Assembly (NCBI GenBank): GCA_051294375.1
Contig: CM119265.1
Span: 8,068,772-8,132,771 of the forward strand
From: Paraspadella gotoi
Taxonomy: Eukaryota; Animalia; Chaetognatha
Length of the DNA stretch: 64,000 nucleotides
Direction: 5' to 3'
The notes beneath the pieces are model-generated. The model worked only from the letters and a program-made list of their open reading frames with translations. It ran no database searches and was not told the DNA's origin. A program made the translations under genes and the position numbers. Shown one piece after another: positions 6,143-58,450 of the stretch; within the stretch, counting starts at the first letter, position 1, and every line of letters starts with the position of its first letter.

Positions 6143-7140
6143 AGAGAGAGCAGAGAGAGAGGAGAGAGAGAGAAGAGAGAGAGAAAACGGCATAGAAAGC
6201 AAAAGGTGGTGATAATGGCGAAGGATCAAGATGATGAGAACGGGGGTAAATGGACCGCGGTTTGACGTTATGGGGTGAGGGGGGGGACAGCGCCCGGTGG
6301 GAGGGGGGGTTCGATTCCAATGAATCGGAAGAAGGGAGGAGACGGGGAAAGGGGGAGGGAAGGAAGAGATATAAAATAAATAACGCAAACGGGAAAGGAG
6401 GGAAATAGAAGGAGAAGAGAACAGGAAATAAAAAAGAAAGAAGAATAGAAATAAAAATAGACGACACCGAAGGGAAGGGAGAGTGGAAGAGAGAGACGAA
6501 GGAAAGGAAAGGTAGGAAAGAGAGAGAACAGAGACAGAATCAAAGACCTACGAAAAAATGACAAGGGCAAGGAAAATGGTAGGAGCAAAAGACTAAAAAA
6601 TAGAAACGGACTCCTCGAGCCTCCACAACACTTTTTTAAATGAAAAAAAAAAAATGACTCGATGACTTCTCCATATTTTCCGCTTCGACCCGATGGTAAT
6701 TTGGCTTTTTTGAAGGCTAAGTTGATCTCCTGTGGATTGAAATCTTTTTGAACAAATAAAATAACAAATCAGATGTGCCGTCAATACTTGCGGAACATTC
6801 CAAAGTCTCATTCATAAATTTTTTTGTTTAAATGTCATCAGCACTCAAAGAACTATTGCCATACGATTTCGTCTCATCCCATCAACCCCCCACATTTGAA
6901 TTTATTAAAAATTAAAACTTATTCGCTTAAATTTAAAGTTGTTAAAAATCATATTAATTTTTCGTTCGATGCACAACGAAGGAAGCGTGAGGAAGGGGGG
7001 GGGTTTTGAGAGGGGCGGAATGGTGTGGGAAAAGAGGGAAGGGAAAGGGAAAAAAAAAAAAGGAGTTACGTATAGTCTCATTGCATATTCGAGTCGTTTG
7101 AAAGAGAATTTCGTCCAGGTTGAGAGAGAGAGATAGAGAG

Positions 7141-16689: not shown

Positions 16690-18471
16690 GTTCCGTTCCC
16701 CTTTTTTTTCAGTTACCTCTCACGTTCCGAGTTTCTTTGTCCGTCTTTTTTTCCTTTTTCCTTTTCTCTCAACCCCTTCCTCTTTTCTCCTTCTTTCTCC
16801 TTTCCTCCCCTTTCCTTTCTACATATTTTTTTTCGGCTCAACTGTTTTCTCTATTTTAGTTCCTCCATCTTTTTTCTTTTCCTCCGCCTTTAAAGTGTAT
16901 CTTGAGAGGCTATTCTTTGCCGAGTTTCTTTTTTCTTTTTCTTTTTTTTTTTAAAGATTCCTTTTTTTCTTCTTTTTTTTCCTCTCGTTCTTTTTTCCCT
17001 TTAAAGCTGCAATATAATTTCTAAGACTAGATCTCCGGACAACGTAGATTCTTTTCCTTTAAATCGCGTTTCCGTAACCGTACAACTTTTGCCACTCAGT
17101 TACAAATGACCACGAATGTCACTCGTTCAATCCTTTTTTGTGTCATTTGGTCCAAAGTCAGAGGTCGAGAGACCTTCGTTATTTAATGAATGGATAAATT
17201 TCATATTGTCATTATCAAAGTTTCATTGTAACACAAAGACGACAGCAAAATTGTAATCTTTCGTCTCTTAAATCGAAAAATTCATTTTCAATTCGTTGCG
17301 TTCAACTTTCCATATTATTGTAACACCGTTTCTCTCACATACGCAGTGACTGACGCCCACCCCCTCAACCTTCACCATCATTGGCGCCGTTTTTTCCGGC
17401 ATTTCGCCGTAAACACGCCCCGTAGTATCGCTTCTTCTTTTTTTGTTCTCACGCGTTCGGCTCCTTCGGTATCTTTGGGTCGCGACGTCAGCGGCGGCGG
17501 CGGCGGTTGCGGCGGCGGTTGCGGCGGCGGCGGCGGCGAAAAGTGAGGAGCGGAGACCTCGAGGATTTTTTCGCTGACGTCACGGATTTTGTCGAATCCC
17601 ACCGCGAGACGCGAAACCTCACCTTTTCCTTCATCCCTTTTCTTTTTCGTTCCTCTATTTTAACATATAATATTCTATCTCTCCTCTTTCTTTTTTCTCG
17701 CTTTGTCATTTGCCGTTCCAGATGTTTACCTCCGTTTCTTTTATCTTCTTCTTTCCTTTCCTCTATATCTTTCGCGTTCCAGACTCGAAGGTTCTTCTTC
17801 ACTTTTATCCTTTGACTTTCTCTTCTTCTTTGCTTTAATCCTCTTTTTACTCTTGCCCCCTTCGTTGTACCAACCCGGGTCTCCCTCTTATCTTTTTTCC
17901 TTCCCTTTTTCTCTCCCACTCTAACTTTTCTTTTATTTTCCTTCTTTTAATCCATTGACTTACCAATACTCACACTTCCTTTCTCTTTACTCTTCCTTCT
18001 TCCCTATTTTATCCTTTCTTCCTAATCTTTCACACTCACACACTTTCTCGCCTTCCCATCTCATTTTTCTCCTCCCTCTCCCTCCTCTTCCCCCCTCTCT
18101 CTCTCTTCTCCCTCTCTTTTTCTTCCCATTATTTCGTCCGTTGTTGATCCGCCATTTCCATTTTTTAATCGAAATTGATTTGCGCGACCCGGAATGCCAC
18201 GCGTCGCTCCGCGCGACGAACGCGCGACACACGGAACGTGACGCGTGGCTTTTCCTCCTGCGTGCGGCGTGCGACCGAGTTTCGCTCATGGTCACGCGGG
18301 GCGGCCGTTGACCCGCTTTTGTTTGCGTGCTTGGTGAATCAGTGCTCGAAGCAATGCGCGCCAAGCATCAAGCGCCAAGCAGCGATCTCTCACGCGCATT
18401 TATTATCTCGTCGCCTTCTAGTTTTTTTTTTCTCTTGTCTTGTCATTTTATATTCCTTCTGTTCTTCCTCT

Positions 18472-47217: not shown

Positions 47218-47624
47218 TCATCCGGCAGAAATCGCAAACGACCTCTCGGCGAAACCACTCTGCAAGTGTCGTCGGTTGCGTCGGTGGCTCCTTTTTAGGG
47301 ACAAATGACGAAGTTCGTTAAGATGGCGCTGGAGCGAGAGAGAACGCAGTTTCGAACAAAAGTGGGCGAGGTTTGAGCGGAAGGGGGTAAAGTTTGCACG
47401 GTGGTGAGGTGAGAATAGGGGACGGTGTTTGAGTGCGAAAGAATTGGCTTCGAGTGAAGAGGTTGTTCTGACTGGGGTCGAGACTTTAATTGGTGACTTC
47501 ATTTGGCGGTTGTTTTTTTTTTTTTTTTTTTGAAGGGCGAGAGTAACATTTTTTTCTGTGTTTTTCTCATGTGTTGTTTTTTTACATTTTTTTTTTTCTT
47601 ACGCTTCTCGAATCGAATTAGTTG

Positions 47625-47858
47625 TGTGGAAGACGATGTCGCGAGCAGTTTACCGTCCGTTGCACACAAGGTCCGAACTTCGGATCGGGCTGTAGTCCGA
47701 CACTACAGGTGGGTTAGACGCCCGTCCGCGTTTACTTGTGTGAATCAGCAGGGCGCGCGAACCCGATCCTTTGGGTTGGGAGGAGCTCTTGCTTCCTCCG
47801 GCGCCATAGTGCTGCTGATTCTCGGACGAGTAGTGGGGTATGAAATACTACCACTACA
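47625..47858 (-). repeat. 3' LTR of the miniature LTR element
   Basis: Preceded on the minus strand by the PPT. Differs from the other LTR mainly by small indels. Confidence 0.9.
47663..47742 (-). ncRNA. Twister ribozyme candidate (type P5) in 3' LTR
   Basis: Second copy of the same fold, one G shorter in P4 and in the P2 strand (possibly read errors). Predicted cleavage between 47716 and 47715. Confidence 0.7.
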
Positions 47859-47867
47859 CATCCCCCT
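47859..47867 (-). promoter_or_regulatory. Polypurine tract (PPT)
   Basis: AGGGGGATG abuts the 3' LTR on the minus strand. Confidence 0.7.
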
Positions 47868-48029
47868 AGGCATCACACACCCGCGACAAGTGTGATGGCT
47901 ATGATGCACGCGTTGTGCCGAGCACTCTAGGAGGGGCTGCCTATTCCTGCTCCCGTCTCACACACGATGGTCGAGGGCAGAGGTGTGTTAACATGCCCGG
48001 GCAGAGGTGTATTAACGTGCCAGCGTGTT

Positions 48030-48044
48030 CGTGTGGGCTCACCA
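48030..48044 (-). promoter_or_regulatory. Primer-binding site (PBS)
   Basis: TGGTGAGCCCACACG starts 1 nt after the 5' LTR end. TGG is complementary to the tRNA 3' CCA. The cognate tRNA cannot be assigned by eye. Confidence 0.7.
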
Positions 48045-48045
48045 A

Positions 48046-48278
48046 TGTGGAAGACGATGTCCGAGCAGTTTACCGTCCGTTGCACACAAGGTCCCGAACT
48101 TCGGATCGGGCTGTAGTCCGACACTACAGGTGGGTTAGACGCCCGTCCCGCCTTTACTTGTGTGAATCAGCAGGGGCGAACCCGAGTCCTTTGGGTTGGG
48201 AGGAGCTCTTGCTTCCTCCGGCGCATAAGTGCTGCTGATTCTCGGACGAGTAGTGGGGTATGAAATACTACCACTACA
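48046..48278 (-). repeat. 5' LTR of the miniature LTR element
   Basis: Reads TGTAG...CCACA on the minus strand, is followed by the PBS, and is near-identical to 47625-47858. Confidence 0.9.
48083..48164 (-). ncRNA. Twister ribozyme candidate, circularly permuted (type P5), in 5' LTR
   Basis: Minus-strand RNA: CACACAAG-UAAA-GGCGG-GACGG-GCGUC-UAA-CCC-AC-CUGUAGU(GUCGG)ACUACAG-CCCGA(UCCGAAGU)UCGGG-AC-CUUGUGUG. P5 is 8 bp, P3 7 bp, P4 5 bp. Conserved UAA, GA and L4 UCC.AAG motifs are present; pseudoknots CCG/CGG and AC/GU. Predicted cleavage U^A between 48137 and 48136. P2 is short and imperfect and P1 is minimal. Confidence 0.75.
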
Positions 48279-49517
48279 GTTGTCTCATTTCATCTAATAA
48301 AAAAATAATTTTCAGTTTTGTTTAAATAAAAAATATATCTTCGTTTTTTCCCAAAATCTCCCCCAATCTCTACCCCTTAGCCCCTCTCCCCGTCATAATC
48401 CCTCGAATGAAAGCCCCCCTCCCGAGTCAGATCATGCATAACGAGGCTTAAGGCGAGAAAAGTCTCCCTTCTGACCAAAGGGGTCGCCGACGATGTTTAG
48501 GGAGGATTAGCCGCCGATGCCGCGTCGCCAAACGTTCGTGAGGGGTTGGCCGGGGTCTTGAAGGATGGGTTCTGGGTGGGTAAGGGATGATGCGAGGTAG
48601 GGTTTGGTTCGACGGAGATATTTCTTTTTACTTTGGAAAAGTTGGGGGAATTTTTTTAGGACTCTCTCTATTCTGTGACTCAAGTCTGTGACTTGTGAAG
48701 GTTGAGGTTTTAATGGTTGGGGTATTCGGATTTATGTGAAAGTGTTTCGACGCCGTTATAAATCGATGGACTCACGCGTTATCACAGGAGATCCTCACGT
48801 GATTTGATCTAACTTTTTGTCATTTTCCTCGAATAAATTTCTCGTGATTCTCGATAACGCCATTCGAGATTGACTCGATTCTCCGAGGCGCGAAACCAGG
48901 AATGCCCGCGACGCGTGTCTCTCTGGCTTCGATTTCGCGCGAGAGGCCGTCGCCATCTTGGATTATTTGGGAAGGGAGAGGTTATAAGTACTTAAGTATG
49001 TATATGATACAAAAATTGAGAGAGTTTTATGTTTCTGTTTATATGTAAACATTGTTACATAGCTTGGTAATCGTTAGTTGACGTGAGTAATAAACAGATG
49101 CTAAGGCTACATACTCAAAGAGATTCAAAGGCAGTGACGTTGTAAAGTTGCAAAAAAGGGATTTGGGGTCAAAGGGTCCAATCAGAGGAGACATCGTCGA
49201 ATCCGATATGTTTATTGGTCATTTCCGTTCGTTTGATGAATTTTCGTCTCACGAAAAATTTAGATTCCGAGTTTTATGGTTTTTCCCGCGTCGAATGAGG
49301 AAAAAAAAAGGAGGAGGAAGAGGAGTAGTTGTGGGATAGGGGGTTTTTGATCGCAGCGTGGATGGCGGGGCTTGGTGGTTCCATGGTGGCTTGGGGGTTT
49401 CATGGTGGTCATAATCCGAACGCGCGAATCTATTGCGAGATTTATTGGAGATCGACGCTTCATCGTCAATGTTTCGCGAGGAAGTCCGCCAGCAATCTCG
49501 TCGAGCAGAGCTATATG

Positions 49518-56109: not shown

Positions 56110-58450
56110 TAACCGTTGTACAACTACTGTTTCAACTGCCGGCTGGTACCGCTCACGTAGATTTAGGCTCAGGTGTCCGTGTTCAAGGCATGCCGATTCT
56201 TGTATGTCGACTGAAGGATGATGAAGGTTAATTTGTGCGGTGCAGTTCTTTAGGCGCCACTTCGTGCACCAATCCTCTAATATCGTATTAGCCTTTTCAT
56301 ACGTATTTCTACCGATTTGCGGAATTATCCGCAAGTGGTCGCTGTGCTGCCTGGTCGTCCGCAACCTGGGCCGGTCTATTCCTTTGTCCCTCGACACACG
56401 TTAGTCGTAGTGTAAATATTGAAGAATGATACAGGAACTGTTATTACCCACCTGAGGGCGTGCCGGATGTTATTTTGAGAGGATTTGGATTTGCAGATGT
56501 GGACCAGAGTTTCAGATTGAGAAACGGCTTTGGTATTTGCGTAATCAAGCAAAAGAGAAGTTGGCTTAGTAATTCCTGTACATAATTTGGCATGAAGCAT
56601 TTCATTGAGAGGAGTTTTGTAAGGGCGAAAGGGCCATTGTCCACCAAGGGTTGGTACGAATGCGCATGTACGAGGTGGAGTCTGTGCACTCACTTCCATA
56701 GAAAACAGGCGCAAGACCGGTTTACGGATGCTTATCACCAAGTGTCATAGGAGCGACCATGGATGCAGAGCAATTTCCTTCTCACAGGAAAGACTTGGTG
56801 AGTAGTATATCTGTTGAGTATCCAGGAATAGGGGTGCTTGAGATAGGCGGCTGACTGCGATTTGTTGTAGGCCATGGGCTTGGAATTTGGTTGTCTCATT
56901 CCTTTTTGTCCAAATCTGGGCTGTTAATCCTGGTTTTGATTAGTACTTTCGAATACTTTGCCTATGCACGATGAGTAAACTAATTGGAAACGACTGATTT
57001 TTTGAATTACTTCAGGTTTTGAATATAATATATAGCACGAGATATAAAACTTAGACTCTTTGTTTCCACACTTTGGGGTAGAGGCCTTTTGCCAAGCAGA
57101 GATGTTGTAAGAATTAGAGGAGCTGCTGGAGGATGGGTAAGATCGGTAGTTGCTATAAGAGAGTAGTAAGGTGAACGGCGGCCGTCTTCTCGCCAGCTGC
57201 CGATTTATTTTTAGCATGCTACGTGAAATAGCTGCATCGAACCTCTTCACGAGAAGTTGGGGCTGTTTCTTGATCTCTTACGCATTTTCCAAAAGGATGT
57301 TGAAGCATCCGCTATTGTATCCCGAACGAGAAGTCGTTGCAATCCATTATCTTCCATTCGTGTCGAAGTTGGATCTAGACTCGGGTTGTAGACCTTTTCC
57401 AATCTCCAGCATGGGTCTCCGCTCTATCCTTGACTGTTACGCTAAGAATGTCCGTCGCTCTTCAACAAGGGCTGGGAAGCGCAATCTGGCGATTGTTTTT
57501 ATATTCAGCTATCTTTAGATAATCTGTAGCATTTCATCTCGGGCCTGCAAAGTATTTGCCATAAGTATCTAACCTTTCTTCCAGTGTTCTGTCTATCTCT
57601 CTGAGGTCTCTTTTTTCAATTCGAGTGAAGATTTTATATATAAAAGTTTGCGTAGAACCGTTCATTGAGGAACCTTCTTTTTCCTCCAAACATGCAATTA
57701 TCTCTTAATCCCAGGAGTAGATTGGACTCTTTCGATAATCTTAATTGATTGCCCTGTTCGCCCGTGTGGCTTTTACGGTTGTTGGAGATTTCGAAGAACT
57801 TGCATTACTGTCTGAAGCGAAATTCTCATGCCATTTGGGTTTACGTATTTCTTTGTGTGCTATCGTTCTTCAGTCAGAGGGTATAGTGATTCTCCTTAAC
57901 TCAACAGTCTCCCCGAATTTCCTTGCCAATCTGTGAACTTTCTTGTTGCCTCTGCTTCTGCCTCTATAAGGCTTAATTATCACTGTAATGTGTGGGGGAC
58001 GGTGGTCGCTTATGTATTTACGGATTTTGTACTCCATTCTTTAAATGATCGTCGGTAACAAAAGGATTTTTCATATGCATAAGCTGAAGTCTAGGCTCCA
58101 CTTCTAAGACATCGCTCGAAAGCTGAAAAAGATTGGCTCACTGTATTTCAGGCATATGAGATGAAAGATGATTGCCAACATCGAGGTCTTCCAGATGTTT
58201 CTACGCTTCGGTGTTCGAGATTAGCTCTCTAAGTATGATAGGTTGGCGTTAATATCGAGATATGATACCTGAAATTTCTGTACCTCATGGAGATACAATA
58301 ATCGAAAAAGTTTGTTTGGGTGCTCTAATGACCTGGATAGAATGTATATTTGGTGGAAACTGTAATTATACGCTAGCGACTAGCTCTGACGAAAAAAGGT
58401 CAGAGGTTTTTTTAATATAATTCTTTCGACCGAGAGGGACGGGCATGTAA
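56110..58450 (-). mobile_element. Degenerate non-LTR retrotransposon (LINE) ORF2: APE endonuclease plus reverse transcriptase
   Basis: Minus-strand motifs in canonical order: LDINAN (GDFNA-like, ~58245), ISDHRP (~58005), RPIS..PIPG (~56840, frameshifted), SGTPQ..FNIY (~56460-56410), QVADD (YADD-like, ~56355), LEDWCTKWRLK (~56270). Many frameshifts and stops. Confidence 0.85.

Follow-up and report, generated by a model that had tools for sequence, protein, structure and literature searches.

In the 64-kb window, the whole stretch of DNA analysed here, positions 47625-48278 carry two LTRs, a PBS-like site, a polypurine tract (PPT) and flanking TSDs, and this layout marks the locus as an LTR retrotransposon of the non-autonomous kind. 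Its features are as follows.

47625..48278, minus strand: whole non-coding LTR element of TRIM size, 654 bp, with TG...CA ends
48046..48278, minus strand: 5' LTR, 233 bp, 95.4% identical to the 3' LTR
47625..47858, minus strand: 3' LTR, 234 bp; 10 columns are unlike the 5' LTR, 9 of them gaps
47621..47624, plus strand: left TSD, GTTG
48279..48282, plus strand: right TSD, GTTG
48035..48044, minus strand: PBS-like site TGGTGAGCCC, one base past the 5' LTR
47859..47867, minus strand: polypurine tract AGGGGGATG, abutting the 3' LTR

Between the LTRs lies a 187-nt core, which on the minus strand starts with TTGGTGAGCCC and ends with AGGGGGATG; we therefore read this strand as the sense of the element and 48046-48278 as its 5' LTR. 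The sequence TGGTGAGCCC presumably bears a partial resemblance to the primer sites of tRNA-Trp or tRNA-Ile. None of the four frames scanned over the element had a Pfam match, and no second copy was detected within the 64-kb window. Just downstream of the PBS, the core contains an 18-nt direct repeat with one mismatch and 24-nt spacing (47975-47992 and 47999-48016), possibly a packaging or dimerisation signal.

The family was profiled in contigs of public runs from one organism (9 rows from 3 studies, at most 0.27 of sampled words). Unlike flanks were found before 47625/47626 in 23 + 6 contigs of run X1 and 20 + 8 of run X4, and behind 47858 in 14 contigs of X1, with flank agreement of 0.42-0.51; so many unlike flanks at the LTR ends indicate a dispersed family with many insertion sites. 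At 48209 and 48214 nearly all family contigs differ from the window, and given these near-fixed differences the runs may stem from a different population or a closely related species. The LTR-to-internal depth ratio was 13.5 in X9, a possible RNA run, and 12.2-19.8 in three DNA runs. Copies of the element were absent from the viral and metagenome contigs searched.

A hairpin lies at the 5' terminus of each LTR (minus strand, 48277-48250 and 47857-47830). Family variants at 47853/48273 (31-38% in X1 and X4) and at 48254 (71%) fall on opposite sides of one predicted pair, which would survive them as U-A, U-G or C-G, the variants being unphased.

The window itself contains 4650 N, has a CpG o/e of 1.1 and is microsatellite-rich. 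A Pfam scan of 81 of its 101 frames returned two matches, both below the cutoff. A short frame at 56110-56400 (minus strand) presumably resembles the end of a non-LTR reverse transcriptase; Pfam and homologue searches with it were both empty. Kilobase-scale near-duplicates with 84-89% identity (3095-4685/8000-9422, 5987-7449/10539-11964, 41673-42905/44560-45828 and others), together with the many N gaps, suggest that the draft assembly is prone to errors or that local duplications took place long ago.

Candidate type-P5 twisters in the two LTRs

A twister fold was modelled in each LTR on the minus strand, with the following parts.

48083..48164, minus strand: predicted type-P5 twister of the 5' LTR
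48164-57/48090-83, minus strand: stem P5 of the 5' twister
48149-48/48134-33, minus strand: stem P2
48142-38, minus strand: mini-P1
48129-23/48117-11, minus strand: stem P3
48110-06/48097-93, minus strand: stem P4
48105-48098, minus strand: loop L4
48131-30/48099-98, minus strand: pseudoknot T1
48145-43/48104-02, minus strand: pseudoknot T2
G48147 and A48146, minus strand: the GA before T2
U48137^A48136, minus strand: predicted cleavage site of the 5' twister
47663..47742, minus strand: predicted twister of the 3' LTR, with its site at U47716^A47715

As modelled, the 5' twister runs in the order P5, an A-rich linker, a P2 strand, GA, CGG (paired in T2 to the CCG of L4), a 5-nt P1 and U^AA, followed by CCC, AC (paired in T1 to the L4 letters GU), P3 (7 bp, with C-G as its closing pair) and P4. 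Sixteen Rfam-confirmed phage twisters went into a twister model, which scored 6.4 bits on the element (E 0.11), covering part of the fold only, and pointed to the hairpin CCGA-UCCGAAGU-UCGG as P4/L4. This hairpin replaced the loop at 48117-48110, which had given no twister when taken as L4. A type-P1 layout by way of a second GA-CGG (48077/47657) was dropped with one P2 pair only, and consensus strings for hammerhead, HDV-like, pistol, hatchet, hairpin and twister-sister ribozymes gave nothing coherent on the element. As for the hammerhead core, CUGANGA is absent from both strands and GAAA from the sense strand of the element.

By a strict descriptor the sites called in the initial annotation are non-random: across the 64-kb window, either strand included, it matches U48137 alone, and loosening P2 to 1 bp adds U47716; the descriptor was composed after the fold was known, so this match rate is optimistic. 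The same descriptor recovers 15 of the 16 Rfam-confirmed twisters and all eight held-out ones. Dinucleotide shuffles of the LTR gave 7 (strict) and 10 matches in 40,000, and E. coli DNA none in 94,695 bases. A 7-feature twister score did not separate the sites from background, and one full-descriptor match among 120 prokaryotic matches to the P4-L4 16-mer was taken as chance.

Both LTRs have the U^AA site, the GA before T2, the C of T1 and an L4 of the form U-n-n-n-A-A-G-Y. The pseudoknots are complete, T1 with 2 bp (A-U, C-G) and T2 with 3 bp (C-G, G-C, G-C), and they differ from those of the usual twister by compensatory changes, which amount to three compensated pairs. Among phage loci picked for the motifs, the full descriptor matched 39 of 52 with the AC:GU form of T1 and 8 of 8 with the CCG:CGG form of T2, and 18 of 20 tested loci with either form were named twister by Rfam at E<0.01. 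Judged by these sequences, the unusual T1 and T2 of the element are natural twister variants. The phage contigs concerned (L163-L222) are rich in twisters with AC:GU or CCG:CGG, six of the 20 tested being under the Rfam gathering score.

When the 5' domain was folded without constraints, P4, P5 and five P3 pairs formed at probabilities of 0.95-1.0. Variation of at least 5% among family contigs (median of three DNA runs) affected 0 of 18 core positions and 4 of 82 domain positions, these four belonging to the loops of P3 and P1, the J5/2 linker and P2; the measure is depth-weighted and unphased, and too sparse for significance alone. In the available part of the CHiTA study, which concerns type-P1 twisters only, P1 was dispensable and P2 imperfections were tolerated, whereas pseudoknot flaws were not (PMC11662667). 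Taken as a structural model, each LTR probably holds a type-P5 twister fold, a candidate ribozyme.

Downstream of the ribozyme a second GGACGG (minus strand, 48079-48073 and 47659-47653) repeats the catalytic GA-CGG strand, and in the LTR fold it pairs with a UCGUCCG upstream of the tRNA-like block. The UCGUCCG strand could possibly also trap the real GA-CGG and act as a switch.

The predicted 421-nt unit, its possible transcription and competing readings

Between the two predicted sites lies the unit that was proposed from the start as the product of tandem self-cleavage.

47716..48136, minus strand: predicted 421-nt monomer or circle between the two sites

Its geometry, one LTR plus the core with sites 421 nt apart, was borne out by the coordinates. 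From 48136 to 47716 it comprises 91 nt of the 5' LTR, the 187-nt internal part and 143 nt of the 3' LTR, and both ends are equivalent U^AA steps of the two LTRs. As the initial annotation also claimed, the unit would hold the PBS-like site (from nt 93), the PPT (from nt 270) and a full, permuted LTR. What the sequence confirms is this architecture and a twister-compatible fold; cleavage, monomer and circle are predictions.

The LTR just upstream of the ribozyme keeps a tRNA register from position 8 to 61.

48163..48241, minus strand: tRNA-like block of the 5' LTR, a weak to moderate candidate for a Pol III promoter (box A-like, CUCCCAA loop, AGGAC and GGTTCG in tRNA register)
47741..47821, minus strand: tRNA-like block of the 3' LTR

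GGTTC is present, box A is partial and the anticodon stem is unpaired. With a 50-position PWM built from 22 E. coli tRNAs, the 5' LTR site ranked second in the window, and 1-8 shuffles in 1000 exceeded it; for the 3' LTR site the score was not above shuffles. A shorter PWM, nhmmer, ARAGORN and the tRNA model run over the whole window missed the block. Within the element, the top match of the tRNA model was 48241-48163 (6.8 bits, E 0.11), where an acceptor-like 7-bp stem stacks on a T-arm. The majority family letters at 48209 and 48214, tRNA positions 25 and 20, would add 4.7-7 bits. A14 and A58 are absent, as they are from the published fish Helenus LTRs in the available part of the supplement (PMC10886601). 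A blastn search of phages with the block was empty. The window's top tRNA-matrix score was at 18265 (minus strand), where the DNA is GC-rich, and 6308-6318 (plus strand) matches a box B 11-mer exactly; either signal may reflect chance or the decayed head of a SINE.

Neither a T4 run nor a polyadenylation signal occurs in the element on its sense strand, and the first T4 is reached 263 nt past its end; the RNA end could therefore come from the 3' ribozyme. We see Pol III transcription from the 5' LTR block as evenly poised on this sequence, and we infer that initiation by Pol III in the 5' LTR would be compatible with a 3' end made by the ribozyme.

We lean slightly towards a twister LTR retrozyme, in which both LTRs would be cleaved and the circle would serve as template for a Gypsy-type reverse transcriptase. 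A read-through transcript would probably start at the tRNA-like promoter of the 5' LTR, and the twisters would cut it at U^AA in both LTRs to give the ~421-nt unit. Twister cleavage leaves a 5'-OH and a cyclic phosphate, and a host RtcB-type ligase would likely close the unit into a circle. RtcB closed animal retrozyme monomers into circles in vitro (30-80%), and in mammalian cells circles are obtained from tandem twisters (PMC7229834). Reverse transcription around the circle, primed by a tRNA, and then integration would be carried out by Gypsy-type proteins; circle-templated reverse transcription and integration have been modelled for plant retrozymes (PMC4918200). On the structural models, cleavage by intact family copies is likely, release of the unit is probable at a somewhat lower level, and ligation and use of the circle are only marginally favoured.

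In the assembly, the 3' LTR twister is short of one G in the P2 strand and of another in P4. A twister-compatible fold lies 5.4 kcal/mol above the MFE for the 5' domain and 9.9 for the 3' domain, with 0-4.3 in 13 controls and pseudoknots uncounted throughout. For the tandem self-cleavage of the initial annotation, modelling supports both sites well structurally, but the 3' ribozyme is weakened in its assembled form, where P5 forms and P4 has a pair probability of 0.03, and release of the unit is less sure from the window locus than from the family. The main rival builds on this misfold. The 3' copy would be misfolded or slower most of the time, an active twister would trim the 5' end only, and the RNA starting at A48136 would keep the whole 3' LTR and a 91-nt terminal redundancy and be reverse-transcribed like an ordinary linear LTR template, with no need of a circle. 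The proposed passage from monomer to circle by a retrozyme route matches the layout of LTR retrozymes, but with a 5'-only cut the redundancy is kept and the circle becomes unnecessary. In the 5'-cleaved RNA, P4 of the 3' ribozyme formed at a probability of 0.04 and a compatible fold cost 11.3 kcal/mol, and twister variants in Perere-3 are reported to trim the 5' end (PMC8501958). However, neither G loss is listed among family variants at 2% and 9 of the 10 LTR differences are gaps, so the losses are probably private to this copy or assembly errors, and identical LTRs place the same ribozyme at both ends. On balance we hold cleavage at the 5' site alone to be rather unlikely.

The motif might also be an inactive relic or a look-alike, the element then being a plain Helenus-type TRIM that Pol III transcribes and whose transcripts stop at T runs in the flanks. 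Published Helenus elements need no ribozyme (PMC10886601), and an Rfam search of the element returned zero ribozyme matches at E<=10. P1 is minimal, its region being 5 nt in the element vs 14-38 nt in all 66 natural P5-type matches, and P2 is weak, with two pairs in the 5' LTR (plus a C-C apposition) and one in the 3' LTR against a twister norm of 3-4 bp. Yet the element retains every descriptor-fixed nucleotide together with the three compensated pairings, and variants common in the family spare the core; we judge the relic distinctly unlikely. Cutting of the tRNA-shaped block by host RNase P/Z, giving a unit-length RNA with ends other than U^AA, would suit the acceptor-like stem and T-arm aligned by the tRNA model but is very improbable, as that score is not significant, the anticodon stem is unpaired and the adjoining twister core is left unexplained.

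Returning to the retrozyme reading, 48143-48138 form one G-C pair around a self-complementary tetraloop, and this P1 6-mer has a computed energy of -6.3 kcal/mol as a two-copy duplex and +5.4 as a one-pair hairpin. In a 617-nt read-through RNA, the strand-swapped twister-compatible fold lay 3.3 kcal/mol below the separate folds, both being 15-18 kcal/mol above the MFE. The swapped P1 had probabilities of 0, 0, 0.39, 0.79 and 0.96 in five transcript windows, and with this spread and a chance of ~4.5% for a self-complementary 6-mer, the double twister is only a hint; we regard two-copy folding through P1, as modelled, as possible but doubtful. Axolotl HHR_Amex1, active as a dimer, has a single-pair helix with a palindromic tetraloop (PMC7229834), a likeness to the element. 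The double twister, if true, would explain why a one-copy circle with a rejoined twister stays uncut. The most elaborate form, a first twister LTR retrozyme, probably animal, that combines a tRNA-type Pol III promoter, a ribozyme replacing the terminator and an obligatory P1 strand swap, which would confine processing to full read-through RNA and keep the ligated one-copy circle stable, strikes us as improbable; such an element, if real, would be a natural version of twister-plus-RtcB circularisation.

Relation to known retrozymes, twisters and TRIMs

The element resembles plant LTR retrozymes in being non-coding and in having a self-cleaving motif per LTR (a predicted one in the element), a PBS, a PPT and a 4-bp TSD (PMC4918200, PMC7761336). 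Double cleavage in the plant elements leaves no R region, and a circle is therefore invoked (PMC4918200). They differ in the ribozyme (type III hammerhead in plants, predicted twister here), the unit (~600-1000 nt vs a predicted 421 nt), the LTRs (300-400 bp vs 233 bp) and the PBS, which is a tRNA-Met site in plants, whereas the element has a site that does not look like it and a tRNA-like block in the LTR (PMC4918200). As modelled, the element would work like an LTR retrozyme but falls outside that class by the hammerhead criterion.

In the literature covered, as far as its texts were available, LTR retrozymes carry type III hammerheads and occur mainly in plants, animal retrozymes are non-LTR and hammerhead-bearing (PMC7761336, PMC6765202, PMC9695139, PMC13725137, PMC11722881, bioRxiv 10.64898/2026.07.22.740005), and twisters in retroelements are single motifs at the 5' end of RTE elements (same literature, including PMC8501958 and the bioRxiv preprint). 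A twister LTR retrozyme was not found in these sources; subscription journals, Repbase and the bioRxiv and CHiTA supplements could still hold such a family. Paired LTR twisters, if real, would mean that one ribozyme can be exchanged for another in the retrozyme route, that this route, should the host be an animal, can work with Gypsy-type machinery outside plants, and that Rfam overlooks ribozyme-bearing LTR elements once P1 has shrunk, so that others may hide among annotated TRIMs.

Type-P5 twisters of RF02684 share with the element U^AA, GA, an 8-nt L4, T1, T2, P4 and a closing P5. Relative to RF02684, the element has P1 cut to one pair with a self-complementary tetraloop, P3 present and a 2-bp P2, and is below Rfam detection. 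Schistosoma Perere-3 likewise has a twister with reduced P1 in a retrotransposon, but of type P1 and as a single 5'-end copy, with no tandem pair, in an autonomous non-LTR element (PMC8501958). Animal non-LTR retrozymes, taken together with HHR_Amex1 and Schistosoma SINE-like repeats, share with the model of the element the minimal one-pair helix, the Pol III promoter followed by a ribozyme and the RtcB circularisation, and differ in their type I hammerheads, tandem repeats and absence of LTR, PBS and PPT (PMC7229834, PMC6765202).

Helenus/TRIMp3 elements are a further close parallel. In the available part of PMC10886601 a ribozyme is not described for Helenus, its Pol III transcription is itself unvalidated, and neither the PBS nor the ribozyme strings of the element were found in the supplement. 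Like Helenus, the element is a TRIM of less than 1 kb (the limit of that class being about 1.3 kb) with a PBS, a PPT and a 4-bp TSD of the animal type, and has an internal part with a TTGG start and a purine end; its putative box A/box B region in the LTR may likewise derive from a tRNA (PMC10886601). The 4-bp TSD combined with a PBS unlike that of tRNA-Met, a pairing seen in animal Helenus, suggests that the host is an animal and probably no plant. A Helenus family of the sterlet has the same degenerate box B, GGTTCGCGCCC, as the element (PMC10886601).
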